Source: Candidatus Latescibacterota bacterium | GTDB lineage: Bacteria > Latescibacterota > UBA2968 | DNA: 64,000 nucleotides | Reading direction: 5' to 3' | Assembly (NCBI GenBank): GCA_965204375.1 | Contig: OZ241986.1 | Span: 5,696,001-5,760,000 of the forward strand | Shown here: piece by piece, positions 1,391 through 16,789 of the stretch | Numbering within the stretch: position 1 is the stretch's first letter | Layout: each line of letters begins with the position of its first letter | The notes under the pieces: model-generated | Database searches by the model: none | Told to the model about the DNA's origin: nothing | What the model saw: only the letters and a program-made list of their open reading frames with translations | Translations under genes and position numbers: made by a program

Positions 1391-4048
1391 ATGTCCAAAA
1401 AGCTCTGGTTTTACGCTTCCGGATTTTTCGCCGGAGTTGGCATGTGCCTGGCGGGTCTGGTCACACAGGCTCAGGCTCAATGGCCCGGCAATGCCAGAAT
1501 CTCGATGTCCCGGGGTCAGATCGGTCACACGCTCCACAATCCGGGCATGACGGGAAAAAAAGATAACGAGACAAAGCTGGCACAGTCTTCGTTTTCGTAT
1601 CCTCAGGGCCGCAATATCAAGGTGTATTCGGGCGGTTCTGAGCGCGAAGGCTGGAATGCCAAGTCGAATACAGGTGGTGAAGGCTTCTGGGTGCTTTCCA
1701 ATACGGGAGGCAGTCCCCACGGTACGTATGCTGGTCCGCGTATTACGTCTTCAGACCTGATTGGTCGCCCCCACGATATGACGCAGATGCCCGAAGCCTA
1801 TGTAGGCGTTGTAGAAGATGGGTCCTGGGCAATGGCGATTCGCAGAGATAGTGGTGCGGACGCGCCCAATATCGCGGGATCAACAGTTGCAGACCGCCGG
1901 ACCAACTGGTGGCCCGCAGCCCACGGTATTTCCAATGCATCGCCTGGAACGAATAGGGCAGTTGTGGTCTGGAACTTCCGTTTTGGCCGCTACAACAGCA
2001 ATGAGTCTTTTGCCAATCGCATTGGTTCTGGAGAATTGCCTCAGTATAGCGCGCCTTCGTGGGTAGAGTCGCTGTCTGAAGATGATTTTCCCGAGTTGAT
2101 CGGTATTCAGGAAGGCGGTTCTTCTGCCACGGGTCTGGAATGGACGCGCAAGTGGTTTTCCACGGCGCATCCGGATCACGATGAGTATTTTGTCGTTGAC
2201 AACGAAGTGGTGAACAATTCGGGTTCGACGGCCGAGGGTGTTTATATTACCTTTGCCAACCGCTTCCACGCAGGCCAGGCTTCTGGCTGGCGGTCAACAT
2301 CGTGGAATCGCCCGCGCGATTACACGCGCGATGATTATTATCGCAATACATTGGCAGCCAATTACCTCAATGGCGTCAGCCGTGGGGATTACACCTCTGC
2401 GCTTGGCAGATCTGCTGGTTTGCAGCGCGGCGTTGACCTTGCCAATGACGGTCATTTTATGACGTATTACCACGATGGGGACTCCGATCATATTTCCAAT
2501 CTGATCAATGATTTGGGCGATCCCTATCGCTATGCTATCGCCCGTGAGCGCTATACCCGCGAGCAGACGTGGGTGCGCGAGGGGATGATTCAGCACGGTC
2601 AGTATTTTGGCTTGGGCACAGTGGATGCCTTCCCGCCGTTTATGCGTTATGGCGGCGTGGATGATGCGATGTATGTGTCACCACACGACAATCCGGCCAC
2701 AGGGCACGATGAGAGCATGCAGCAGCCTGCCTCGGTGCTCTTCCATGCCTATCGCGGTAAGAATGACTTTGACTATCCCTCGCCAGACCGTGCGGGCGAT
2801 GGTCAGATTTACGACGCAGTAGCCAATGGGGGTTATACCGCTGAAAATGAAGCCCCCGGGCATTATACCACGCTGGTTTCTTATGGACCTTACACGCTGG
2901 CACCGGGTGAGAAGGCCAAAGTGGTGGTCGCCTATGTGGTGGGATTAGCAGCAGATCACGCCAAGTATGCCGATTACAAGAAGTATGCTCAGCCCTTTAA
3001 TATGGGCTGGATGAACCACTATGGTGGCAGGGGATCTGAGCCTACGAAGTTGGCGGATCGCCAGCCTGAGATTCCCCTTGGTGAAGATGTGATGTTCGAT
3101 CACTTTGAGAATGCCATTCAGTGGTACAACTGGGGTTATGATCTTCCCAACCAGCCGCCCAATACCAAGGTGGCGTGGGATTCCAACCTGCAGGGCAAGA
3201 CGCAGATTCGGTGGAGTGTCTTTGGTGAAGAAGCAATGGATCCAGATTATTCTGGCGCCGAGGCACAGGATTTGCGCGGATATCGCATCTATCGCTCGTC
3301 TGTAGAGTATCAGGGCGAGTGGGAGTATGTGACCGAGTTTTCTTTCGAAGATGCGCGTGCGGGCAATTTGCCCACGGGTGTCTCCTTTGAACCTTCTCGT
3401 ACGTGGACAACGGTTAAGAGTGGTTCCTGGCCAACGGGTATTCCACTGACGACCAACCAGTACGCTGATGTTGGTGAGCACGGTGCTCTCAATCCCGCTG
3501 CTGGTCCCGAAATTCCCGGCACGTACCTGTTTGACGATCAGGGCACAAACGCAGGCTTCCCCAACTGGTATAGCGTGCGTTTGTATGACTCTGGTCACGG
3601 TGATTGGAATGGCGTGAGCAGCGTCGATGCCCTTGAAGCCGCGCAGAACACCTCTTTGGGTGCTGTGTATGGTTCTCGCTCGGGTATTGTTCCCGTGGTT
3701 CCGGGTGCAGCGGTGTTTGATCGCCTCGAAGAGCAGGTTCGCGTGGTTCCCAATCCGTTTAAGGTGGATAGCGATTTGCATACGTATAACCGTCAGCAGA
3801 ATATGCGGTTTACCAATTTGCCGGGTCGCTGTCAGATCGACCTTTACGATGTGACGGGTCAGCGGATCTGGACCTTCTACAACCAGGATCCTCTGAAGGG
3901 CGAAGTGACGTATATCCAGCTTGCGGAGAACCGTCCGTCTAACTTTGGTGAGGCGATGTTCCCGGGCATTTACTTCTGGAAGGTCACGTCTCTGATGCCG
4001 GGTTCAGAAGGCAAGACGCAGACCGGCACGTTCGTGATCATCAAGTAA
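1391..4048 (+). CDS. Large secreted protein with a T9SS type-A-like/FlgD-like C-terminal Ig domain
   Basis: RBS GAGGAG and signal peptide (...AQAQ). Contains an FN3-like 'GYRIYRS' segment and a C-terminal 'VRVVPNPF...IDLYDVTGQRI...PGIYFWKV...GTFVIIK' sorting-domain pattern. Confidence 0.7.
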   Translation: MSKKLWFYASGFFAGVGMCLAGLVTQAQAQWPGNARISMSRGQIGHTLHNPGMTGKKDNETKLAQSSFSYPQGRNIKVYSGGSEREGWNAKSNTGGEGFWVLSNTGGSPHGTYAGPRITSSDLIGRPHDMTQMPEAYVGVVEDGSWAMAIRRDSGADAPNIAGSTVADRRTNWWPAAHGISNASPGTNRAVVVWNFRFGRYNSNESFANRIGSGELPQYSAPSWVESLSEDDFPELIGIQEGGSSATGLEWTRKWFSTAHPDHDEYFVVDNEVVNNSGSTAEGVYITFANRFHAGQASGWRSTSWNRPRDYTRDDYYRNTLAANYLNGVSRGDYTSALGRSAGLQRGVDLANDGHFMTYYHDGDSDHISNLINDLGDPYRYAIARERYTREQTWVREGMIQHGQYFGLGTVDAFPPFMRYGGVDDAMYVSPHDNPATGHDESMQQPASVLFHAYRGKNDFDYPSPDRAGDGQIYDAVANGGYTAENEAPGHYTTLVSYGPYTLAPGEKAKVVVAYVVGLAADHAKYADYKKYAQPFNMGWMNHYGGRGSEPTKLADRQPEIPLGEDVMFDHFENAIQWYNWGYDLPNQPPNTKVAWDSNLQGKTQIRWSVFGEEAMDPDYSGAEAQDLRGYRIYRSSVEYQGEWEYVTEFSFEDARAGNLPTGVSFEPSRTWTTVKSGSWPTGIPLTTNQYADVGEHGALNPAAGPEIPGTYLFDDQGTNAGFPNWYSVRLYDSGHGDWNGVSSVDALEAAQNTSLGAVYGSRSGIVPVVPGAAVFDRLEEQVRVVPNPFKVDSDLHTYNRQQNMRFTNLPGRCQIDLYDVTGQRIWTFYNQDPLKGEVTYIQLAENRPSNFGEAMFPGIYFWKVTSLMPGSEGKTQTGTFVIIK

Positions 4049-5328: not shown

Positions 5329-5344
5329 TGGCACAGATATTGCA
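5329..5344 (+). promoter_or_regulatory. sigma54 (-24/-12) promoter of pspA
   Basis: TGGCACAGATATTGCA matches TGGCAC-N5-TTGCW, 51 nt upstream of the pspA start. Confidence 0.9.
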
Positions 5345-5395: not shown

Positions 5396-6067
5396 ATGGG
5401 TACTTTTTCAAGAATAAGCAATGTGGTCCGCGCTGAGGTTGACGATGTTCTGAATAAGATAGAGGATCCCAGGAAGATGGTGCGACAGATGGTTCGGGAT
5501 ATGGAGGACGCGCTGGATGATGCGGTGGTTGCCGTGGCACAGGCGATGGCCAGTGAGAAGTTGCTGTCGCGTCGGATTGCACAGAAGCGGGAAGAGTCGG
5601 CTTTGTGGGCGCGCAAGGCAGAGGATGCTATGGATGCTGGCGAGGAGGAACTGGCACGGAAAGCGCTGTTTCAGAAGGTGGCGGTTGATGAAGCGGTCAA
5701 TACACTGCAAAAAGCACGGGATGAAGCGGAAGAGGTGACGGCGACGCTGAAGCAGCGACTCGCTGAACTGAAGGCGAAGTTGGCGTCTGCCCGTGCGCAG
5801 CAAAGCACGCTGGCGATTCGCAGGCAGGTGGTGGTGCAGGAGATGCGACAAGATGCGCGTGTAGAGGCTTATGATCGGTTTGTTCGGGATGTGGCGCGCG
5901 AGGAAGCGACGGCTGAGATCTATGCCGAGATGGCGGGCGATGCTCAGTTGGAAGAAGAGTTTGATCAACTGGAGCGAAAGCAGCGCGTCGAGGCGGAGAT
6001 GCAGGTGTTGAAGGAGAAAGTGAAACAGAGCGCACGCCAGAATGATGAATCTGAGGAGGAGAAGTAA
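5396..6067 (+). CDS. pspA: PspA/IM30 family phage-shock protein
   Basis: 'MGTFSRISNVVRA...IEDPRKMVRQMVRDME', 'WARKAEDAMDAGEEELARKAL', coiled-coil; RBS AAGGAG. Confidence 0.9.
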   Translation: MGTFSRISNVVRAEVDDVLNKIEDPRKMVRQMVRDMEDALDDAVVAVAQAMASEKLLSRRIAQKREESALWARKAEDAMDAGEEELARKALFQKVAVDEAVNTLQKARDEAEEVTATLKQRLAELKAKLASARAQQSTLAIRRQVVVQEMRQDARVEAYDRFVRDVAREEATAEIYAEMAGDAQLEEEFDQLERKQRVEAEMQVLKEKVKQSARQNDESEEEK

Positions 6068-6259: not shown

Positions 6260-7150
6260 CTATTCTTTTTTCGCATTGCCATCCGAGTGTGGAGCCACAC
6301 TCATTGGCACGGCACTCCGCACATGCAAATCTCGCTGCGGGAATGGAATCGTAATATTCCGCTCTCGGAATGCCTGGACAATTGCAAAATTCAAATCACT
6401 GATCACAAATAACTGACGGGGTGGATCCTCAATCCAAACCAGCAAATCAAAATTCAGAGAACTATCGCCAAAGCCCAGAAACTGCATCTGCGGCTCGGGA
6501 TCGGACAAAACCTCTGGATGCGCCCGTCCCACCTCCAACAACGTCTCCGCGACCAGTTCCACATCGGCACCATAAGACACGCCCACAGATGCATGAATAC
6601 GCACTTTTGACTCTTGAAAGCTCCAGTTTGTGACATTTTCAGATAGAAATTTTGAATTGGGCACAATAATCGTCACATTATCCAAGGTATAGACCTTTGT
6701 GCTATAGGCATTGACCGCCTGCACACGGCCTTGCACACCATCTACCTCCACAAAATCTCCCTCCTGCACGGGGCGCTCAAATAACATAATGAGTCCACTG
6801 ATAAAATTGTGGGTAATAGTTTGCAACCCCAAACCAATCCCCACCAGCAATACCGCACTAACCGCTGCCAATGTCGTCAGATTAATCCCGGTATATTCTA
6901 TGGCGATAAATATGCCGATGCACATGATAACAATGTGCAATAGGCGACATATAGCTGACTGCGAACCTTTATTTATATGTATCTGTTCAAACACGCTACG
7001 CCGCAACAGGCGTTGCAAAAATCGCGATATCCCATACGCAATAAGGATAATCAGCGTCGCCGTCAGCAAAATGGCTGGCGTTATTTCTATTTCGCCAAAA
7101 GAAACGAGTGGTTCCTCAATTACCTTGCGTAAATTATCCCAGGGATTCAT
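6260..7150 (-). CDS. MscS-family mechanosensitive channel
   Basis: 'GIGLGLQTITHNFISGLIMLFERPVQEGDFV', 'IIVPNS', 'IPFPQRDLH'. Confidence 0.95.
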   Translation of the reverse strand: MNPWDNLRKVIEEPLVSFGEIEITPAILLTATLIILIAYGISRFLQRLLRRSVFEQIHINKGSQSAICRLLHIVIMCIGIFIAIEYTGINLTTLAAVSAVLLVGIGLGLQTITHNFISGLIMLFERPVQEGDFVEVDGVQGRVQAVNAYSTKVYTLDNVTIIVPNSKFLSENVTNWSFQESKVRIHASVGVSYGADVELVAETLLEVGRAHPEVLSDPEPQMQFLGFGDSSLNFDLLVWIEDPPRQLFVISDLNFAIVQAFRERNITIPFPQRDLHVRSAVPMSVAPHSDGNAKKE

Positions 7151-7152
7151 AC

Positions 7153-9150
7153 TTAATCCTCCCGAACCAATACAATAAGATCATCCGATTCACTTAGCAT
7201 ATATGGTTCATCACGCGCCGGATTGAGCGCGACCCCACTGTTTTGCAAGCGCATACCCAGCGCGATTTCGCCCCGACATGCCGACATCTCCACAATCTGC
7301 CCAAAACTCACATTTTTACCTGCTATACCGTAATCTGAAACCCTGCGAAAGCAAATCTCTGCACCACCGGCGGCAAATAACTCTTCATAAACGACATTGA
7401 GTTCCCGACGCAATGCAACTTGTGCCAGCACATGGCTTGCGATCATTGGCGTAATCAATACCTCGGTATCGTAATCTTCAAACAACGCCACATTGTCGGG
7501 ATCCATTAAATCGACCAGAATTTCTGGTTTATGCGTGACCTCATCCAGCACATTCCTCAGCACCAGATGTACCACAATCGTCCGCGCATCCGACTCTTCC
7601 TGTGTCTCTACCCAGTCACTGCCCAAAATAACCACATTATCATACCTACCTGGATCCATTTCTCTTAAATTTGATAGCGAAGTAGTCTCACCTTCGCGAT
7701 GAGTGACAACCACGCGGCGCAGATCAATGTCTTTTTGTTCTATCTCTGCTTCTCTTTGCTCCAAAGGTACAAGAGACAAAACCGCGACCTCAAACTGTTC
7801 ATCAGCCTGTCTGTCGAACTCTTTGAGCAAAGCCACTGCTTTGTGGTTCCATCCCAAAATTAAGATGCGTCTTTTGCCTTTTTCCCTCACATAGGGCACT
7901 TCTTGAAATTTATGCGATACGCGTTCTATCTGATAATTTTTCAGGGGTTCACAATTCCCGTAATCTTCTGCCAAAAAGACCAGCCGGTCTTCTGATTCCA
8001 AAATTAGATCCCCGGGCGGATTGAGCATGGGGCAAAACGCCTCACCCTGGGGACGCACTATGCCCAGCAAAACCGCTTTGGGATACGCACCTGATAGATC
8101 CCCAAAACGAAAACCCGTAAACTCCTCGCACATTCGCACATAGACCTCATTGCCAAGCCCGTGCGATAAAATATCATGGAACACATGCGACAATCCCGGG
8201 TGACGCACATTTTGCGCCATACATCGCGTAATAAAAACATCGCTCGCCAAAATTTCTAAAATGCCCCGATAGGCTCTTTTTGCCATAACCACTTTGTTGG
8301 AATCGAAGATTTCCGTCACCAGCAAAGGCAGATCTTCTTTAGTATCCCCCTTCCCACCCTGATTCGATATCGACATCAGTGTTTTTATAATGCGCATATC
8401 CGACTCATCCGCGCTGCCATAAGCAAAATCAGCCCCGGGCAAAATAATAACACTCGCATTTTTGAAATCTACGCGCTCCAGATGTTCTATCCGCAGGGGT
8501 ATTCCCGACCGAAATGTGATCTTCTTGGCATTCCACACAGGACCGAGTGCTCTCCGCAATTCCACTGTGCGCTCCAAACTCACATCTTCAGACAGAATCA
8601 CCACATGTAACCCACGCGCACCGAGCAGTTGCAAAAACCGGCGCACACGCCCTTCAGCGCGCATCAACTCGCTGACAATTTCAGACGTGCGATTGGTCCA
8701 TCCCAAAATCAAAATGTGATTGCGACGCACGATAGGCGTAAGCCCGCGCTCAAAATTGCGGATCGTCTGATTGAGCCATTGCGTCATAATCGCGATCAAC
8801 GACCCCATAAAAAGCACATATCCCAGCACTGTCACCACCGTTGAAATCACGCGGCGGGCAAGCCCTTCGTCATCTCCCAAATAACCCGGATCGGTCAAAC
8901 GCAAAAATGCCCACCAGATCGCTGTTTCGCGATCATCAAAAGGCGCGTCCGTTTCCTGCACCAGCACCCCACCACCAACGGCGACCAGCCCGATCAACGA
9001 GGCAATGACCAGCAGATGAAAATGGACGCCCAGTAACAACAATCGCTCAACGCGAAATTTCAGGTAATTTTTTACTCGCGCAAACGGGTCAGTAGTTCGC
9101 GATCGCAATTTGAAAAAAAGATTTTCCAATACAACCACCTTGTCAATCAA
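7153..9150 (-). CDS. CASTOR/POLLUX/DMI1-like ion channel with two RCK-like domains
   Basis: TM-pore segment 'AIWWAFLRLTDPGYLGDD', then 'HILILGW' and 'RILILGWN' RCK starts, and 'SDARTI'. Confidence 0.85.
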   Translation of the reverse strand: MIDKVVVLENLFFKLRSRTTDPFARVKNYLKFRVERLLLLGVHFHLLVIASLIGLVAVGGGVLVQETDAPFDDRETAIWWAFLRLTDPGYLGDDEGLARRVISTVVTVLGYVLFMGSLIAIMTQWLNQTIRNFERGLTPIVRRNHILILGWTNRTSEIVSELMRAEGRVRRFLQLLGARGLHVVILSEDVSLERTVELRRALGPVWNAKKITFRSGIPLRIEHLERVDFKNASVIILPGADFAYGSADESDMRIIKTLMSISNQGGKGDTKEDLPLLVTEIFDSNKVVMAKRAYRGILEILASDVFITRCMAQNVRHPGLSHVFHDILSHGLGNEVYVRMCEEFTGFRFGDLSGAYPKAVLLGIVRPQGEAFCPMLNPPGDLILESEDRLVFLAEDYGNCEPLKNYQIERVSHKFQEVPYVREKGKRRILILGWNHKAVALLKEFDRQADEQFEVAVLSLVPLEQREAEIEQKDIDLRRVVVTHREGETTSLSNLREMDPGRYDNVVILGSDWVETQEESDARTIVVHLVLRNVLDEVTHKPEILVDLMDPDNVALFEDYDTEVLITPMIASHVLAQVALRRELNVVYEELFAAGGAEICFRRVSDYGIAGKNVSFGQIVEMSACRGEIALGMRLQNSGVALNPARDEPYMLSESDDLIVLVRED

Positions 9151-9971
9151 TCATCAACAACATCGGTAAAACGCACATCAGACGGTATGAGCTTGCGTCT
9201 GGACAATTCCTTTTTAATACGACTGGTAAGATCAGTGGCGAAACTGTTCTCGTAGCGCGTGTCAAATACGTACGCTTTCACCACGAGGTGTGTCAGATGA
9301 GTCTCTTCAAATTTATCCTTGACATTGACCACCACTGGCTTTTTAAGATATGCGAGCCTGGAAGTAAGCACGGCTTCGTGAGCCACGTCCTCAATCTCTT
9401 TCAGGTCAGCCCGTGCTGGCAGGTATATATCTACAACAACCTGGCAGTCGAGGTTCCCGGCATTGGTGTTCGACACACCAGAGGTCAGTAACGTGGAGTT
9501 CGGTACGGTGACGAGTGAGTCATCAATCGTCTGTAGCTTTGTGCTGCGCAGACCAATTGACACGACTTCGCCGTAATAAGAGCCTACTGTCACGCGATCG
9601 CCGATTTGGAAGGATCGATCAAACAGCACGACGATACCGCCAATAAGATCATTGAGCAAATCTTTCGCAGCAAGCCCAAGTGCCAGGGCGATTGATCCCA
9701 GCAGGGCGAGCAGGGTATTCTGTTCGGGTGCGATAATAACGATAGAATAATAAATCGCAACCCCGTAAATACCGATACGCAACAGGGGCTGGACGCGCTT
9801 GAATAGCAAGCGATGTGAAGGAAATCGGTTGGCCCCAAAATCCAATATAAGACGGATAACCGTTGTCACCGCATAAGCTATCGCAATCACCAGCAGGGCA
9901 GCCACGATTTTGGTAGCGTTAATATGTAAGCCACCGTTTCCTGTGAGTTGTTCGAGAGGGGAAGTATCCAT
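9147..9971 (-). CDS. MscS-family mechanosensitive channel
   Basis: 'ALGLAAKDLLNDLIGG...DRSFQIGDRV...GEVVSIGLRSTKLQT.DDSLVTVPNS'. Confidence 0.92.
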   Translation of the reverse strand: MDTSPLEQLTGNGGLHINATKIVAALLVIAIAYAVTTVIRLILDFGANRFPSHRLLFKRVQPLLRIGIYGVAIYYSIVIIAPEQNTLLALLGSIALALGLAAKDLLNDLIGGIVVLFDRSFQIGDRVTVGSYYGEVVSIGLRSTKLQTIDDSLVTVPNSTLLTSGVSNTNAGNLDCQVVVDIYLPARADLKEIEDVAHEAVLTSRLAYLKKPVVVNVKDKFEETHLTHLVVKAYVFDTRYENSFATDLTSRIKKELSRRKLIPSDVRFTDVVDD

Positions 9972-9994
9972 GATGCTCAGATTCCTGTTTCAGA

Positions 9995-12565
9995 TTACAA
10001 GAGACCGCGTCCTTCCAGCATTTCCTCTACGGCATCCAAACCGATGGGATTGATGCGGAAACGCGCCGATTCCTGATCGAACTCGAGAATATTGTCGTTC
10101 CACAGAATCTCGAGTTCCAATCTGGTCTGGATGAGATCTTTGTCGAGTATTGTCGATAATTCGGCAGCAGTAAGATTGTCGTGCTGCAGCACCGCGATTA
10201 AAATAAAAGCCTGATCAAGCGAGAAATTGCGCACAATACCAAGGTCAATTTCGCTGACGGGATTAACCATAAGGAGTTCGTTTTCCGAAGACTCAATCGA
10301 CCGCAACCAGTACAGAAGAGCGACAGAAATATTCTCCTTGCAGATCTCCGCCAGATTTTTGAAATAGATCTGGGCCAGCGCGTCCTGAACGGCTGGCTCT
10401 TCTGACCGTCGCCAGCGACGCACGCGCCGCCGCAAAACTTTTTCCAACTCCTTATTTATAGCATAGCGCAAACGATAGCCACTCTGGTTGTGACGCTGCA
10501 TAATCATCATCTGTAACTCCGCCGGTTGCCACACGCGAATTCCGACCTCAAAGTGAAATAGGCGATTCAGGGGCAGCCACATACCGAGATAGTTGCGCGC
10601 ATGCTGGTCAAGAGAAATACCCCAGAGTATGTGGTGATTAGTACGCGCGATGAGCCAAAGCAGGTGCTGGATCGCATCCAGACCCCCGATACTTTTGAGA
10701 AACAGATTGTGACACTCTTCGAGTATCACAGTACGTCGTGGTCCTTGCAGCAAGCTCAGAGCCAGATCGTCAAAACTCGCCACATCCTCGATCTCAAGGA
10801 CATTTGCCAGATAGGACACCAGCTCAGATTCGGTCGTCATCTTGCGCTCAATTGCGGATCGAGTTACGACCGAAGCGTCGTCGAACAATCGCAAGATGGC
10901 AATATTCAAAAGCGTCGTTTTGCCCGCGCCCCGTTGCCCGAATAAAATAATGGAAGAAGTAAGGCCATCTTCCCAGCGCTGAATCGCCTGATCAATTGTA
11001 GCCAGTTCGTCGTCAAATCCGACAAATAACGTCTCGTCATTCAAAGAATCGAAAGCGAAATGAGCGACGTAGTCTTCAGGTAGTCCGAGTTGCCTGATTG
11101 ACTCCAAATTGGCCTGATCGAGTGCCAGACGGACTTCGCGATCGACCGGTGCCATTAAACCCAGGCGACGCAACACGGGTTTGATGATACTGGAAACAGC
11201 ATTGAATAGCACAACTCCCTGTGCCCGAAGAAATGAAAATAAGCGCAGCAATACCTGTCTGCACGCTCTCAGTGCTGTCAGAATTCTCTGGCGGACAAAT
11301 CGCCCGAGCTTTGTAATCCAGAACGCAATCCAGCCATACCGAACAGCATCCTGACCGACCAGTTCCAGCCTCTCCTGATGCTCGCATTCAAGCTCCCACA
11401 GCAATGACTCCCACGCCATTCGGGCATAGTCGTTGAGGTCTCGCAATCGATTGATCGCGCGATTGAACCCCATCTGAACATCGGGCAATAGTGTGCCATC
11501 GTCCTGCGACAGGCCATTATCAACCGTATTGAGAACATATCTCAGCGTACTAAAAACACTGTCCAACCCCTCGAGCGATCCTTCAACACGGATTTTTTCG
11601 AATTGCTGATAAGAGGTATCGGCTCTATTCTCCAAATCGCTGAAATGGGAAGCACCAATCTGGCGCAGTGGAACAAGCCGGTAGCTGGTTCGATCTTTCC
11701 AATTCAGATCGTGCTCATAACTGACCTTTTCTGACACATTGTCGAAAACCGTGGCAGAGTTTTGGAATGCGTCCCGATTTAAAGCCTCCACCTCAGCCAA
11801 CATATTGGGATTACATAAATCCGCATGAAACGAGTCGAAAATGTGTTGCACATTTTCGCGCGTCTGGGGAAGTGATTCTTTCAGAGCCTGAGGACGGCGG
11901 CGTAGTTGGATCGATACATCTTGTTGTATCCTCCTTAAGTCCTCGATTACGGACTCCGCACGCTGGCGGACAGAGTGCAGGTCTTTCTCTTGCTCAGCAC
12001 GCACTATTTGGCGCACCTCAAATAGTTGGCGTCGGATGTTCCCAATAGCTACCCTGTAGCCCGTAATCTCCTCTGGAGGATCAACGTAGTTATGAGTAAG
12101 ACGAATAAGATCGACCAATCGCGGGCAGCGCAATAGACGCAGCAATCGCAGATCGAACAACACGATAGAAAAGAAAAAATTTAGAATGACAATGAGATCG
12201 GCGATCTGCAGCGGGCGAAGTCCAAAACGCAACCGGGTGGCAAGGTGTGTTCCCCCAGCGGCCTGGACAGACCACATACGCGCCAGATATTCAACAATGA
12301 GCAAGCCAATAAATAGCCATTCGAACCAGTAAGAATAATAAAGAAAATAATAATGCAGGATATCTTTACCCGGCCACCACTCGAACCGCTGCAGATACGC
12401 CATGAGGGTTTTCGGCCACCATATATCGAGGCATTGAACACCCGTACTAAAGAGCACAAGAACGAGTATTGCCCAGTTGATTCGCCGGCTGAACAAGTCG
12501 CCAGGACCGGCGACTTCGAGAATTTCGTATGTTCGATTTTTTATTTTTTTAAAAAAGGCGATCAT
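9995..12565 (-). CDS. Fusion protein: ion-transport S1-S4 voltage-sensor-like domain, helical region, P-loop (AAA-like) ATPase and probable winged helix
   Basis: N-terminal 'YEILE...EYLARMWS...IADLIVIL...DLRLLRLLRCPRL' (S2-S4 pattern). Walker A GQRGAGKTT and Walker B 'TVILEE'. C-terminal 'LTAAELSTIL...TRLELEILWNDNIL'. Confidence 0.75.
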   Translation of the reverse strand: MIAFFKKIKNRTYEILEVAGPGDLFSRRINWAILVLVLFSTGVQCLDIWWPKTLMAYLQRFEWWPGKDILHYYFLYYSYWFEWLFIGLLIVEYLARMWSVQAAGGTHLATRLRFGLRPLQIADLIVILNFFFSIVLFDLRLLRLLRCPRLVDLIRLTHNYVDPPEEITGYRVAIGNIRRQLFEVRQIVRAEQEKDLHSVRQRAESVIEDLRRIQQDVSIQLRRRPQALKESLPQTRENVQHIFDSFHADLCNPNMLAEVEALNRDAFQNSATVFDNVSEKVSYEHDLNWKDRTSYRLVPLRQIGASHFSDLENRADTSYQQFEKIRVEGSLEGLDSVFSTLRYVLNTVDNGLSQDDGTLLPDVQMGFNRAINRLRDLNDYARMAWESLLWELECEHQERLELVGQDAVRYGWIAFWITKLGRFVRQRILTALRACRQVLLRLFSFLRAQGVVLFNAVSSIIKPVLRRLGLMAPVDREVRLALDQANLESIRQLGLPEDYVAHFAFDSLNDETLFVGFDDELATIDQAIQRWEDGLTSSIILFGQRGAGKTTLLNIAILRLFDDASVVTRSAIERKMTTESELVSYLANVLEIEDVASFDDLALSLLQGPRRTVILEECHNLFLKSIGGLDAIQHLLWLIARTNHHILWGISLDQHARNYLGMWLPLNRLFHFEVGIRVWQPAELQMMIMQRHNQSGYRLRYAINKELEKVLRRRVRRWRRSEEPAVQDALAQIYFKNLAEICKENISVALLYWLRSIESSENELLMVNPVSEIDLGIVRNFSLDQAFILIAVLQHDNLTAAELSTILDKDLIQTRLELEILWNDNILEFDQESARFRINPIGLDAVEEMLEGRGLL

Positions 12566-12619
12566 AAATTAATCCACTGCAACAATCGTTCAATGCGAAA
12601 AATCAGATATTTTTTACCT

Positions 12620-12709
12620 TTAGTGTGTCGCGATCTCCGTCGCCAGATGCAAAACCGCATCGCCGCGATGCACCAGGGGCGATATGGTCCGTCCAATCAC
12701 CAGGCCATT
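12620..12709 (-). pseudogene. C-terminal remnant of a succinylglutamate desuccinylase/aspartoacylase-family gene
   Basis: The minus frame reads NGLVIGRTISPLVHRGDAVLHLATEIATH*, resembling the family terminus G.VIGR...PLV..GDA..H.A. An in-frame stop lies just upstream. Confidence 0.6.
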
Positions 12710-12817
12710 CCTCCTTGAATTTCACGAATGCTTTCTGCCAGAAGTCTCAGGTTTTACTATAGCTGTCAAATCCTAAATAATCTGCTATGAGTCTATCTGT
12801 CAAGCATTTGTACACAG

Positions 12818-12850
12818 AAGCCCCGGACATTATTCAACGCCCAGGGCTTC
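12818..12850 (-). terminator. Possible hairpin downstream of the CmpX-like gene
   Basis: GAAGCCC...GGGCTTC inverted repeat with a large loop and a weak T-tract. Confidence 0.35.
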
Positions 12851-12915
12851 TATTCCTTAGCGATCACAGCGTTATACAGATATTCCAAACACCAATCCAC
12901 ATATCGAGAATAGTG

Positions 12916-14535
12916 TTACTCTTCCTTTGAGTCCGAAGGGCTATTCTTGTTTATTTCTTCGAGACTCTGTGTCCATTGCTCCATCTGTTTTTTCGCCAGA
13001 TCGCGCCCTCCCATGCCGAACGCAATCGCGGCGGCGATAGCTGCTGAACCGAGGATGAGTCCGAAGGCGAGAGTAATGATCTCATTTGCGATGCCCATCT
13101 GCCCGAGTGCCATAAAGAGAGACAGTGCTACGATCGCAACCCGGACGATTGTACTGAGTATGCTGCCATAGGCACCCCCTTTTCTGGACGCGATGCGACC
13201 GAATATAGATGCGAGGTAAAGCCCGAAACCGAAGATCACCACGCCCAGGACGACCTTGCCAAATAGCAGCGTCAGCGTCACGAACATGCCTGCCAACTCC
13301 TGGAATCCGAGTTGCGCGGTTGCCTCAATAGCCGAGAAGAGGAGGACAGCCACCATGGCGACATATCCCGCTATTTGCGAAGGTGGACGATCCAACGCAA
13401 AGGTTGTCGCCACTGTTGAAGATGGGCGGTCCCCCTCAGAGGTCGCCTCCGCAATGGAAGGCGATTGTTCCTCAGCAACGGTCACTTCCGCTATTCCGAG
13501 GCGTTGTAGCAGCGTGTTGAAGCCTATTTGTCTGAGCACATCGTCAACTATGCGGGATACTAATTGAGCCACCAGATACCCGATGAGGAGGATACCTCCA
13601 GCGACCAGGATAGACGGTACTGCGGCCAATACCCCCTCCAGCATAGAACTGGCGGGATCGGAAATAGCCTCGAAGTTTAGCGATTCGAGTGCGGCGATCG
13701 CTGCGAATATCAAGATGACTGCATAAGACAATGTACCGGCAAGCCCCGAAAGGCTTTCGATACCCAGTCCAGTTGCCAGCCCCACGCGACGACCAAAATT
13801 GTTTATCCCGGTGGCGTCGAGGATGTTGGTGATTATCTGCTGGACGATGCGCGCACCGAGCCAGCCGATTAGCATGATGAGGGCGGCGGCGAACAGGTTG
13901 GGCAGGAAGCCGATAATTTTGGCCATCATTTGCTGTACTGGTTGTAGCAATCCCTGCAATCCCAGGACATCCAGGATAGCCGGGAGTAGCACGAGAAACG
14001 TGAGCCAGTACACCACGTTGCCGATTGTCTGCGGCAGCCCGCTCTCTGTTGCGGTCTCAAGCCCGGCTGGTTCAGCCAAACGTTGCTCGATATTTGCTCG
14101 TGATAGCACGGCCGTTACGATTCTTCGCAACAGACTACCCACGAGCCAGGCAATCAAAAGCAGCGAGGCGGCGCCCAACAGCTTGGGTAAGTAGATCAAA
14201 ATTTGGCTCAGCATCGCGTTGAGGGGGACGGTCACTGTCGTCAGGTCGAGTATCTGAAAGAAGGCAACGAGCACGAAGATCATCACCAGATAGAACACTG
14301 CCTTGCTGATCCAGCGTTCAACGTGGATGTTCGCGGCGGCGTCGCGGCCCATGACCAGTTCGAGCAATCTGTCATCTACTTGCGTTTTGAGCAGAACTCG
14401 ACGGACGACCCAGGACACCAGATGAGCCACTATCCATCCGAACACGAGGATAGTAAAAGGTAAGATGATATGTGCAAAGGGTGAGAAGTATTGCTCCCAC
14501 CATTCCCAACCTTCAAACATATTTGCTATTTCCAT
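12916..14535 (-). CDS. CmpX-like 'conserved TM helix' repeat protein (MscS-associated family)
   Basis: Repeated TM_helix units (YLPKLLGA, FLPNLFAA, AVPSILVA) and C-terminal 'IITLAFGLILG..A...AIAFGMGGRDLA'. Start moved to 14535 because it follows the RBS GAAAGGA and the sigma54 promoter overlaps 14607. Confidence 0.85.
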   Translation of the reverse strand: MEIANMFEGWEWWEQYFSPFAHIILPFTILVFGWIVAHLVSWVVRRVLLKTQVDDRLLELVMGRDAAANIHVERWISKAVFYLVMIFVLVAFFQILDLTTVTVPLNAMLSQILIYLPKLLGAASLLLIAWLVGSLLRRIVTAVLSRANIEQRLAEPAGLETATESGLPQTIGNVVYWLTFLVLLPAILDVLGLQGLLQPVQQMMAKIIGFLPNLFAAALIMLIGWLGARIVQQIITNILDATGINNFGRRVGLATGLGIESLSGLAGTLSYAVILIFAAIAALESLNFEAISDPASSMLEGVLAAVPSILVAGGILLIGYLVAQLVSRIVDDVLRQIGFNTLLQRLGIAEVTVAEEQSPSIAEATSEGDRPSSTVATTFALDRPPSQIAGYVAMVAVLLFSAIEATAQLGFQELAGMFVTLTLLFGKVVLGVVIFGFGLYLASIFGRIASRKGGAYGSILSTIVRVAIVALSLFMALGQMGIANEIITLAFGLILGSAAIAAAIAFGMGGRDLAKKQMEQWTQSLEEINKNSPSDSKEE

Positions 14536-14590
14536 GGCAATTCCTTTCTCCATATTGAATGTTATCTTTTTTCCTGCCAGGCAAAATAAC

Positions 14591-14606
14591 AGCAAATCCC
14601 GTGCCA
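14591..14606 (-). promoter_or_regulatory. sigma54 (-24/-12) promoter driving the CmpX-like gene and probably the channel genes
   Basis: Minus strand reads TGGCACGGGATTTGCT, an exact consensus match. Confidence 0.92.
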
Positions 14607-14682
14607 CTCTTAGAGTCGCCCAATTTGGTGATTATTACATAGTGTTGTACGATATCGGGACCGGAGCTTGACAATCGGAGTC

Positions 14683-14734
14683 GTGACTACGACATTGTGA
14701 CTACGACATTTTGTCGTTACCAGTCATTTTGACG
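14683..14734. promoter_or_regulatory. Probable enhancer (UAS) for the adjacent sigma54 activator
   Basis: 14-bp tandem repeat GTGACTACGACATT x2, overlapping the palindrome ACGACA-TTT-TGTCGT (14703-14717), about 100 bp upstream of the sigma54 promoter. Confidence 0.7.
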
Positions 14735-14834
14735 TAGTGCATAACATGAAGAGGTTGTATTCCACATAGTAATGATGTAACTTTCTTTCATCTCGCTTAA
14801 ATAATTTCAATTTTGATAGAGGTTCATACCACCG

Positions 14835-16247
14835 ATGCAGGCATTTTCCAGTCCAATCGCTTATACGCCTTTGCTCGGCAGCGTGTTTGTTGCCGATAGC
14901 AACCCGAAACACCTGGAAATCGTGACCAGAATCCTGCGAGAGAACGGTTGTGACGAAGTTGTCGGAGCGACTGATGGCACCGTCGCGGAGCAACTGCTCA
15001 AAACGCAGTCTCTGGATGTGGCGATCATAGATATCAACATGCCGGGTGGTATGCAGTTGCTGAACATAGCTATCACACTGACGCCACCGCTGCCGGTAGT
15101 TATCTTCACCTCTTATGCGACTGTAAAACAAGCGGTACAGGCCATGCGGTTAGGTGCCGTTGATTACGTGGTCAAGCCGGTTGATGCCAACGATCTGCTG
15201 ACTGCCGTACATCGTGCACTTGAACGCAAGCGGGTATTTGACCACGTTTCAGATAAACGGGTGGAGGCGAGGACGGAATTCGGCGAATTGCTGGGGACCT
15301 CTAATGCAATGCAGGCGGTGTTTGACCAGATCCGACGTGCGGCACCTTTCAAATCGACGGTTCTGATCACGGGCGAAAGTGGTACCGGGAAAGAGTTGGT
15401 AGCAAGTGCTATTCACTCTCTCAGTGCCGTGAGCAATGGGCCTTTTGTTGCCATCAATTGCTCGGCTCTGCCGGTGGGATTGGCTGATAGTGAGTTATTT
15501 GGACATGAGAAAGGTTCTTTTACCGGGGCGACACAGGACCGACAGGGGCTTTTTGAAGCAGCCCAGGGAGGGACCCTCTTCCTTGACGAAATAGGGGACT
15601 TAGATATGCAGGTGCAGACGAAATTATTGCGCGTGCTGGAAGAACAGAAAGTCCGACACCTTGGAGCAAGCCAATTTATCGATGTCAACGTGCGCGTTGT
15701 CGCGGCTTCAAATGTGGATCTGACGACGGCGGTCAAAATGGGACGATTCCGGGAAGACCTGTATTACCGCATCAACGTCATTCATATTTCCGTCCCATCC
15801 CTCAGATCTCGAAAGTCGGATATCCCTCTGCTGGTGCGGGTTTTTGCCGAGCGTTTCGTAGATCAGAACGGGATCACTCCCGTTGAAATAGCGGATCGAT
15901 GTCTCGACCGTATGGCCGAATACGACTGGCCGGGAAATGTCAGGGAACTAAAGAACATGGTTGAGCGTCTGGTGATCTATGCCGCAGACGGAAACAGGGC
16001 AATTGGAGAGAAAGATATCGAGTCCATTTTGCCAATTGATGATAGAACCACTTCCTTGGAAGATTCAGAATCTCAGAAATCGGATTTCGTGCCGAGAAGG
16101 CTGGACGAAGCAGAAAGGAAGATGATTTTAGATACGCTCAAGCATACCGGCGGAAATCGCACTCAGAGCGCCGACATTTTGGGTATCAGTGTGCGAACGC
16201 TGCAGCGGAAAATCACAGAGTACGGTGTTACGTCTCAGAAAACCTGA
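14835..16247 (+). CDS. sigma54-dependent response regulator (NtrC/AtoC/ZraR family)
   Basis: Receiver (DINMPG, VKP); AAA+ motifs GESGTGKE, ELFGHEKGSFTGA, FLDEIG, WPGNVREL; C-terminal Fis HTH. Confidence 0.95.
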   Translation: MQAFSSPIAYTPLLGSVFVADSNPKHLEIVTRILRENGCDEVVGATDGTVAEQLLKTQSLDVAIIDINMPGGMQLLNIAITLTPPLPVVIFTSYATVKQAVQAMRLGAVDYVVKPVDANDLLTAVHRALERKRVFDHVSDKRVEARTEFGELLGTSNAMQAVFDQIRRAAPFKSTVLITGESGTGKELVASAIHSLSAVSNGPFVAINCSALPVGLADSELFGHEKGSFTGATQDRQGLFEAAQGGTLFLDEIGDLDMQVQTKLLRVLEEQKVRHLGASQFIDVNVRVVAASNVDLTTAVKMGRFREDLYYRINVIHISVPSLRSRKSDIPLLVRVFAERFVDQNGITPVEIADRCLDRMAEYDWPGNVRELKNMVERLVIYAADGNRAIGEKDIESILPIDDRTTSLEDSESQKSDFVPRRLDEAERKMILDTLKHTGGNRTQSADILGISVRTLQRKITEYGVTSQKT

Positions 16248-16405: not shown

Positions 16406-16789
16406 ATGAGCGTGGTGCAGCAGCGGGGAATCTATTGCGTCCTCGCTTGTTTTTTGTTCGCTTCTTCTTTGGGTGTGGAAAGCCTCCTTATTCGTCTGGT
16501 CAATGGTCTGAGGCTGGAGGTGAGTTTGGATTATCGGCGATCATTGGGGAGCGTAAAATTGCGGTCGCGAGTGCGCAGTTTTACGGGGTTTACAGATCGG
16601 CATGTGGTGTCTTTAGAGAATTATAATTCACTCGCTTTTCCATTGGTTGGCGCGTTGAGTTTGTCTGTGCAGCAGAGCAATTTTTTGTATCGGGTCAATA
16701 AAATTCGCAATACGCCTGTTGATGGCATTGCCAATCGGTGGGATCTGACACTCGGTTTGGTTTATGATTTGGGGTGGAAGTGGTATTGA
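16406..16789 (+). pseudogene. Probable internally deleted outer-membrane beta-barrel gene
   Basis: RBS AAGGAGG and a signal-peptide-like start, joined directly to a few amphipathic beta-strands ending 'WDLTLGLVYDLGWKWY'. Confidence 0.45.

Follow-up and report, generated by a model that had tools for sequence, protein, structure and literature searches.

A voltage-sensor/AAA+ ATPase fusion gene paired with the gene of a dedicated MscS-type channel beside a sigma-54 promoter in Candidatus Latescibacterota

Introduction

Which of the channel-type genes that lie side by side in the genome of a Candidatus Latescibacterota bacterium belong together, and what could the resulting system do? The stretch analysed here, referred to below as the window, comprises 64,000 nucleotides of contig OZ241986.1 (assembly GCA_965204375.1, positions 5,696,001 to 5,760,000), and positions are given as those of the window. 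Open reading frame (ORF) listing and scans with Pfam and NCBIfam, which form the basis of the gene identities, established that five genes share the minus strand, namely a CmpX-like gene, a gene encoding a voltage sensor fused to an ATPase (protein P0001, hereafter the ATPase), the channel gene MscS1, a CASTOR-like RCK channel gene and a second MscS gene, MscS2. Inspection of the letters alone had yielded the prediction that these are co-oriented membrane genes, of which the last four are tightly packed, and this was borne out (23 nt lie between the first two of the four, the middle two abut or overlap, and 2 nt part the last two). It had further been proposed that all five form a single regulon under sigma-54 control, possibly with the ATPase acting on the MscS channel next to it. 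As set out below, it is the latter idea that is borne out as a gene association, while the single regulon is not supported.

MscS proteins are textbook channels gated directly by the lipid bilayer, and the known members of this family respond to tension unaided or through domains fused within the same chain. For the locus described here we favour, with a probability of roughly one half, the explanation that the ATPase partners a dedicated MscS channel and, depending on nucleotide, couples a sensor to it, the two genes constituting a system of their own.

Results and discussion

The ATPase and MscS1 genes occur together within the genus

Relatives with proteins of 81-95% identity are likewise labelled Candidatus Latescibacterota, and twenty other genomes of the same genus were searched. 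A full-length ATPase gene is present in 8 of the 20 and an MscS1 orthologue in exactly those 8, and the gene order ATPase, MscS1, CASTOR, MscS2 is retained at all 8 loci (for MscS2, where the contig reaches that far). The CASTOR-like gene, by comparison, is found in 17 of the 20 genomes whether the ATPase-MscS1 pair is present or not; it belongs to the genus core, is tied to the pair loosely and is always followed directly by MscS2. In the genomes that are devoid of the pair, pspA, CASTOR and MscS2 are co-oriented, so that in these genomes CASTOR and MscS2 may form part of the psp stress response, and one such locus (L044) retains a fragment resembling the MscS1 C-terminus ahead of CASTOR. CASTOR and MscS2 are the older local pair, next to which the ATPase-MscS1 cassette sits. 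The original prediction had named co-occurrence of the ATPase with MscS, CASTOR and CmpX as a check; this stood for MscS1, while the association with CASTOR proved loose and that with CmpX unstable.

Two ATPase copies of the genus are altered. At locus L019 (7222-9055) an insertion, which contains a 510-aa ORF with a DUF772 transposase domain, splits the gene after approximately residue 78, and at L016 (9573-10694) a DDE transposase lies at the 5′ end of the gene, the start codon region of which is gone.

The pairing recurs across phyla

A word-based protein search returned only relatives of at least 82% identity together with matches to the voltage sensors of K+ channels, and an exhaustive search was needed to see the family, HMMER then reporting 2415 proteins at E ≤ 0.001. 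About 10 representatives, with identities of 34-54%, possess the voltage-sensor/ATPase architecture in full. The majority of the other relatives are of approximately 1000 aa, have few or no hydrophobic stretches according to a hydropathy script and align to P0001 from residue 230-320 onwards, while some, of approximately 1500 aa, carry an N-terminal Na_H_Exchanger domain. Where these proteins bear a name it is 'hypothetical' or 'ATP-binding protein', and the structural look-alikes fall in clusters of the same names.

Eleven distant loci of the voltage-sensor type were available, their records being assigned to Planctomycetota, Gemmatimonadota, Entotheonella, a delta proteobacterium and Acidobacteriota. 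In 10 of these the gene immediately downstream of that for the ATPase encodes an MscS1 orthologue (44-66% identity), and the record of the eleventh stops 15 nt past the ATPase gene. Across phyla, MscS1 is the better conserved of the two proteins, with 61-66% identity as compared to 40-43% for the ATPase. A CASTOR homologue (47-50% identity) is encoded on the other strand, no more than a few kb away, at 4 of the 11 loci (L029, L030, L031 and L033), and the other neighbours vary, including MgtE, OmpA-domain proteins, further MscS genes, and KaiC with a histidine kinase. At 79 further loci, from many phyla, the ATPase is of the soluble type; here an MscS1-type gene follows directly downstream on the same strand in 72 cases, the gap having a median of 5 nt and 4-nt overlaps being frequent, while at the remaining loci it lies directly upstream (two), at a distance of 1.8 kb (one) or is split (one), or the locus runs off the record (three), so that pairing was observed at 75 of the 79. 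A small MscS-like gene also follows both of the ATPase genes fused to NhaP and both of those fused to SLC12. Of 57 sampled Calditrichia genomes, 24 contain a member of the ATPase family and the same 24 an MscS1-type channel, and in a sample of 81 Flavobacteriaceae genomes the ATPase was present in one, the seed genome only. The same pairing is seen from phylum to phylum and with each of four N-terminal architectures.

Some of these loci deserve separate mention. In L127 (4028-9115, minus strand) and L128 (4106-9292, minus strand) the ATPase module is fused to a cation-chloride transporter of the SLC12 type in proteins of 1695-1728 aa, and in L125 and L126 to a Na+/H+ exchanger in proteins of approximately 1508 aa. 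The Gemmatimonadota genome of L030 (G044) harbours both a voltage-sensor-type and a soluble-type ATPase (approximately 1010 aa), on contigs C15 and C42. A 684-714-aa protein with a 5′-nucleotidase C-terminal domain is encoded next to the CASTOR homologue, on its far side, at the loci from Planctomycetota and Gemmatimonadota (L029, 9990-13986, and L030, L031 and L033, downstream of MscS1), and in Gemmatimonadota this gene is followed in turn by a T2SSE-type ATPase gene with a helix-turn-helix and by two more MscS genes. In L029, NtrC-type, KaiC and histidine-kinase genes come directly after MscS1, while in L037 (13137-15437) and L039 (13695-15611), from Acidobacteriota and Entotheonella, this position is taken by a 638-766-aa protein with a C-terminal OmpA domain.

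A gene pair of this distribution might also constitute an abortive-infection defence, in which the ATPase would sense infection and open the MscS-like pore, with collapse of the cell. This role is kept alive by the patchy occurrence of the family in the three genome samples and by the transposase-disrupted copies, the locus being a rearrangement hotspot with transposases. In addition, the fold of the ATPase resembles, at structural scores lower than those given below for its best matches, BrxC (Z 13.1) and the Avs-type STAND ATPases (Z 12.7), and Tmn, a published defence system, is described as a membrane P-loop NTPase. However, the make-up of the flanking genes and the lack of a usable PADLOC match argue against such a role: PADLOC gave only mad8 (E 0.0058) and PbeC (E 0.0078), both over the P-loop, and the flanks are enriched for further MscS paralogues and for two-component sensors. 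Of the 136 ORFs that flank the soluble-type loci, 19 belong to MscS, the commonest family, and 11 to the histidine kinases, which come next, and no defence family was found among the 25 commonest. The fused N-termini, moreover, are ion transporters and a voltage sensor and not sensors of invaders, and we hold a defence function to be highly improbable.

A voltage sensor joined to an ORC/Cdc6-like AAA+ module

P0001 is composed of a voltage sensor (approximately residues 1-160), a helical domain (170-470), an AAA+ base and lid (520-745) and a winged helix (775-856). The Ion_trans family matches residues 28-156 at 22.2 bits, below the cut-off of 25, and reaches 48.9 bits in the relative P0019, while a profile built from 10 homologues matches the voltage-sensor domains of KCNQ1 at E 2.3e-13 over profile positions 6-137. 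The S4 arginine repeat DLRLLRLLRCPRL, the acidic and aromatic residues of S2 and the Asp of S3 are retained, and R96, W98 and D123 are invariant in the alignment of homologues; the domain belongs to the S1-S4 voltage sensors with S4 arginines and S2/S3 counter-charges. An S5-P-S6 pore was not found in P0001, in which the Ion_trans match ends at position 111 of the 241 of the profile; no strongly hydrophobic stretch was reported by the hydropathy script after residue 142, and the structural model past residue 160 is that of a soluble helical domain. Residues 170-470 form long helices of confident local structure, for which the matches are exclusively to designed or generic helical bundles (Z 14.2), a range rated uninformative.

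Voltage sensors that operate without a pore are known from the voltage-sensing phosphatase Ci-VSP and from Hv1. P0001 would resemble these in coupling S1-S4 with S4 arginines to a cytoplasmic effector in place of an S5-S6 pore, and differs from them in the nature of this effector, an ORC/Cdc6-like AAA+ module that carries a winged helix, in its bacterial host and in the constant pairing of its gene with that of an MscS channel.

The AAA_16 and AAA_22 families were detected over residues 514-635 of P0001, both below cut-off, and AAA_16 scores 33.1-46.2 bits in some relatives; the Walker A motif is GQRGAGKT and the Walker B motif VILEE. Assignment to the STAND NTPases of the AAA_16 type was rejected, as the score is 22.9 bits against a cut-off of 32.6 and no repeat domain follows the winged helix, the last part of the chain. 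In a model of the whole protein computed from 10 sequences the ATPase domain was poor, with a predicted local distance difference test (pLDDT) value of 30-55; an AlphaFold2 model of residues 470-856, computed from an alignment of 80 sequences, attained a pLDDT of 95.4 and displays an AAA+ base and lid followed by a winged helix. Foldseek matched the latter model to archaeal ORC2/Cdc6 (E 2.6e-9), and structure comparison returned Cdc6 (7jgr_G, Z 15.7, root-mean-square deviation 3.4 over 245 residues), Orc1 (2qby_A, Z 15.4) and TnsC (7rzy_1, Z 14.8), while the last 80 or so residues match winged helices of the MarR type (Z 12.2, root-mean-square deviation 1.6). With base, lid, winged helix and both Walker motifs in place, the module belongs to the ORC/Cdc6-type AAA+ fold. 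It shares the base, the lid and the C-terminal winged helix with the initiator clade of ORC, Cdc6 and TnsC, from which it differs in its low identity (10-16%), in being fused to membrane-embedded ion-transport or sensor domains and in its second Walker B acid, which is not conserved. No replication genes were found in the gene context of the ATPase loci, be it in the genus, at the distant loci or in the flanks of the soluble-type loci, nor was there a transposition context.

Given these structural matches, the ATPase could be a sensor-linked transcription regulator that binds DNA through its AAA+ module and winged helix and has the MscS gene as its target. Its best matches are indeed DNA-binding AAA+ proteins of the initiator clade and winged helices of the MarR or ArsR type, and genes for regulators and their targets commonly adjoin. 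This is countered by the arrangement of the genes, as co-directional genes a median of 5 nt apart, many of them overlapping by 4 nt, are what is usually seen for partners translated together and not for a regulator and its target, and by the voltage-sensor, NhaP and SLC12 fusions, which are held in the membrane; the complex prediction described below, which passed weakly over its controls, also speaks for contact between the two proteins. A transcriptional role consequently appears unlikely to us.

In an alignment of 62 family members the glycines of Walker A are near-invariant, and Glu616 (59 of 62), Thr642 (61 of 62) and Arg691 (62 of 62) are conserved. The copy in the window retains Lys549, Glu616 and Glu617. 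Seventeen of the 62 lack the Walker A lysine and the second Walker B acid is variable, which indicates that ATP hydrolysis is not universal in the family; as judged from these residues, the pattern would suit a nucleotide switch better than a motor. The same residues bear on a possible role of the ATPase in assembly or remodelling, in which it would serve a heptameric MscS1 as a chaperone or as a membrane-insertion or disassembly factor and not as a gating subunit. The AAA+ fold, the strict pairing with MscS1 and the presence of both Glu616 and Glu617 in the window copy are what such a factor would have. Nevertheless, the fold is that of the initiator or switch clade and not of a classic unfoldase, the N-terminal ion-sensing domains make better sense as regulatory inputs, and the loss of the Walker A lysine in part of the family is at odds with remodelling, so that we consider this role quite unlikely.

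MscS1 as the probable dedicated channel and a proposed mechanism

MscS1 has the MscS beta-domain (PF00924), preceded by three predicted transmembrane (TM) helices, and the MscS models of NCBIfam match it at E 1.6e-20, far below their equivalog cut-offs. The C-terminal family PF21082 was not reported for MscS1 at E ≤ 0.01, and residues 171-274 are conserved among the partner channels. MscS1-type partners carry a charged motif, AERF/W..RL.FKR..P..R, between TM1 and TM2, which, given the established topology of MscS, would face the cytoplasm. The partners of the soluble ATPases possess an extra signal peptide and an N-terminal extension, both absent in the partners of the voltage-sensor type. MscS1 and MscS2 share the beta-domain with E. 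coli MscS, MscK and YbdG, and MscS2 shares the C-terminal domain as well, whereas the MscS1 subfamily is set apart by occurring, in the genomes sampled, solely together with a separate AAA+ protein.

Complex prediction for the ATPase and MscS1, which had been suggested as a check, gave a score of 0.34 as compared to 0.00 for the best of three controls, the runs agreeing in at least 92% of contacts and the partner pLDDT being at least 73. The pair thus passed a mark which is reached by 58 of 80 solved complexes and by 2 of 110 mismatched pairs; passing scores of 0.60 or less were obtained for 7 of the 80 solved complexes and for both of the passing mismatches. A pass of this kind is more often wrong than right unless the pair is likely beforehand, and the genomic prior is high in the present case. 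The check therefore succeeded in so far as the pair exceeded its controls and fell short in that the score is weak and no interface was obtained.

We infer binding of the ATPase to MscS1 from the strict co-occurrence, the operon-like spacing and the weak pass in complex prediction, and the direction of control and the voltage dependence would follow the scheme below. The variable N-terminal domain would be the input, an S1-S4 voltage sensor in the window and a Na+/H+ exchanger, an SLC12 transporter or a soluble domain in the relatives, and would report voltage or ion transport. The long helical connector and the ORC/Cdc6-like AAA+ switch with its winged helix would pass the signal on, and the ATPase, bound to its dedicated MscS1, may then set gating or assembly of the channel through its nucleotide state. 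MscS1 would be the output valve, responding in this organism to membrane potential besides tension. On a wider and more tentative view, for which we see appreciably less than an even chance, the pair may be the voltage-sensing member of a new class of regulated MscS valves, in which an AAA+ switch with swappable inputs docks on an MscS channel, the opening of which would depend on potential or ion flux and on nucleotide. As a concept, this recalls the nucleotide-gated K+ uptake channels TrkAH and KtrAB, which have a separately encoded cytoplasmic nucleotide-binding partner; the likeness lies in a channel protein that is placed under a nucleotide-binding partner from an adjacent gene, while the folds are unrelated, an RCK ring as against AAA+ and a TrkH/KtrB pore as against MscS.

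Several points weigh against a partnership of the ATPase with the channel. The complex score is, as stated, weak and without an interface. To our knowledge the solved MscS channels gate by tension and dispense with helper proteins, and AAA+ proteins of this clade (ORC/Cdc6, TnsC and MuB), like the MarR-type winged helix, as a rule have DNA as their substrate. Only 45 of the 62 aligned members possess the Walker A lysine, and the second Walker B acid varies. The pair is also dispensable, as it was not found in 12 of the 20 genus genomes, and the two altered copies described above are damaged, one (genome G020) being split by the transposase-bearing insertion and the other (genome G018) having a transposase at its 5′ end. 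Finally, the searched genomes are related to one another, and the counts given above overstate independence.

Searches of the full-text literature returned no description of an ATPase-MscS pair or of a voltage-sensor/AAA+ fusion, and none was found by term in passages of PMC11237479, the supplementary tables of which might list neighbourhoods of this kind. The parts (MscS, a voltage sensor, an ORC/Cdc6-like AAA+ module, CASTOR, and sigma-54 with NtrC) are known, and it is their combination that is apparently undescribed.

The known effectors of voltage sensors are pores, a phosphatase and a proton path, and the partnership proposed here, if true, would represent a new coupling of a bacterial voltage sensor to an ATPase as well as an exception to the rule that MscS channels are partner-free. 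An MscS subfamily which never occurs without its own AAA+ partner, and which is present in the genome records of many phyla, would add an unknown layer of control to osmotic and electrical homeostasis in bacteria. The voltage-sensor version would furthermore offer a compact system in which to study how the movement of S4 is transferred to a soluble enzyme, and the exchange of voltage sensor, NhaP and SLC12 on one ATPase scaffold renders the hypothesis directly testable.

The sigma-54 promoter probably serves the CmpX-like gene

The exact sigma-54 promoter that had been predicted ahead of the five genes is present as TGGCACGGGATTTGCT. Only two exact matches to TGGCAC-N5-TTGCW occur in the window, this one and another before pspA, and with one mismatch allowed there are 5 matches as compared to 3.0 expected; the pattern is thus not significant on its own and weight rests on the position and conservation of the site. 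An exact site precedes CmpX at all five loci that hold this gene (L013-L017), and none precedes the ATPase gene at 7 genus, 11 distant and 79 soluble-type loci. The upstream activating sequence (UAS), which had been described as palindromic, is real as an upstream repeat element that is nearly invariant across 6 genus loci, but it is a direct repeat more than a clean palindrome, comprising a tandem 14-nt repeat at 14683-14710 and an inverted repeat of 17 nt at 14686-14738 that is imperfect (76% complementary). As the listed GTG start of CmpX at 14607 overlaps the promoter, conservation makes the ATG at 14553 the likelier start, and on the sequence evidence this is most likely the true one. The promoter's target is likely the CmpX-like gene, in a module apart from the ATPase block; the combination of a -24/-12 promoter with an adjacent gene for an enhancer-binding protein was found for CmpX alone and not for the block of ATPase, MscS1, CASTOR and MscS2.

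The other exact site, TGGCACAGATATTGCA, lies at 5329-5344 on the plus strand before pspA (5396-6067) and is retained at 10 of the 11 genus loci that hold pspA. The neighbourhood resembles sigma-54 membrane-stress regulons of the PspF/PspA type in its exact promoters before pspA and the CmpX-like gene and in the NtrC-type activator beside CmpX. It differs from them in that the activator has a receiver domain, which PspF lacks, and in that the ATPase-MscS pair lies outside the sigma-54 module in relatives; the UAS repeat of the CmpX promoter was not found at the pspA promoter.

The distance between CmpX and the ATPase gene is approximately 0.4 kb in the window and in L017 and 2.7-5.2 kb in L013-L016, where genes for a Zn_protease (PF05618), a RimK ATP-grasp protein and an AstE/AspA-like protein intervene, together with a DDE transposase gene in L016. 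The 30-codon AstE-like remnant in the window, set against the intact trio in L013-L016, marks the adjacency of CmpX and ATPase genes as a deletion scar; by this comparison of loci, the CmpX/NtrC module appears to have been brought beside the ATPase block by deletion. In L018 and L019, neither CmpX nor NtrC was found within 7 kb of the block. Ahead of the ATPase block, in the window as in L017, L018 and L019, there is a strong hairpin with a TTGACA box after it, irrespective of whether the upstream neighbour is CmpX, the orf127 side or the pspA side. The hairpin region folds at -45.2 kcal/mol over 136 nt (z -3.6), and the hairpin probably terminates transcription of the upstream gene and delimits the ATPase block on its 5′ side.

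These observations bear on the proposal that the five channel-type genes form one sigma-54/NtrC regulon integrating tension, voltage and ion signals. Their common orientation and the presence of the exact promoter, the UAS and the divergent activator are in its favour, and the hairpin after CmpX has no U-tract, so that read-through is conceivable in this strain. It is contradicted by the genes that part CmpX from the ATPase gene in L013-L016, by the deletion remnant in the window, by the loci that hold the block with neither CmpX nor NtrC nearby, by the consistent lack of a sigma-54 site before the ATPase gene at the scanned loci, and by the boundary of hairpin and TTGACA box, which is retained independently of the upstream gene. 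A single regulon is thus very unlikely, and the neighbourhood is better read as three modules, namely NtrC and CmpX under sigma-54, the ATPase-MscS1 cassette, and CASTOR-MscS2 beside the psp genes.

Contigs from RNA libraries cover all of the genes; they derive from close relatives at 90-99% identity, possibly include DNA and show presence only. In X1, record 2 (5259 nt) spans 7381-12581 and joins CASTOR, MscS1 and the ATPase gene, which as a contig is no proof of a single transcript. No X1 contig covers 14576-14806, the CmpX contigs ending at about 14558-14575 and the NtrC contigs beginning at about 14803-14807, while a CmpX contig stops within the hairpin, at 12835. Such ends are compatible with separate transcription and with initiation at the sigma-54 promoter, and were not counted as evidence; the X1 strain carries a RimK-type insert and thus provides no test of read-through in the arrangement of the window.

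Features of the window

The coordinates of the features are collected in Table 1. The CASTOR-like protein additionally has a Slo-like RCK domain (27 bits as compared to a cut-off of 24) and a putative filter-like stretch, LTDPGYLGDD.

Table 1. Genes and regulatory elements of the locus, in order of position in the window
Feature	Position	Strand	Evidence
MscS2, 296 aa, MscK C-terminal type	6260-7150	-	PF00924 76.5 bits, PF21082 59.4 bits, NCBIfam
CASTOR/POLLUX-like channel with two-TM pore and RCK, 665 aa	7153-9150	-	Castor_Poll_mid (PF06241) 68.9 bits, cut-off 26.7
MscS1, MscS family, 274 aa	9147-9971	-	PF00924 78.6 bits, cut-off 20.2, residues 104-170
Voltage-sensor/ATPase fusion (P0001), 856 aa	9995-12565	-	Ion_trans, AAA_16 and AAA_22, all below Pfam cut-offs
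AstE/AspA-like remnant, last 30 codons	12623-12712	-	tblastn, 97% identity to residues 290-319 of the intact L015 gene
Hairpin (18-bp stem, 4-nt loop), then TTGACA box; likely terminator	12814-12853	-	RNA folding
CmpX-like gene, mechanosensitive-channel family	ORF 12916-14607, likely start 14553	-	PF05552 in four stretches, 152 bits; NF033912 346 bits
Sigma-54 -24/-12 promoter TGGCACGGGATTTGCT	14591-14606	-	Exact match to TGGCAC-N5-TTGCW
Candidate enhancer (UAS): tandem 14-nt repeat and imperfect inverted repeat	14683-14738	unassigned	Repeat search, conservation
NtrC-type response regulator, divergent from CmpX as predicted	14835-16247	+	REC, Sigma54_activat 233 bits, HTH_8

Two further ORFs of the window gave no Pfam match at E ≤ 0.001. 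One, of 885 aa, lies at 1391-4048 on the plus strand, and the other, of 127 aa, at 16406-16789 on the same strand; the latter is retained beside a gene for a TLC-like transporter in all of the genus loci.

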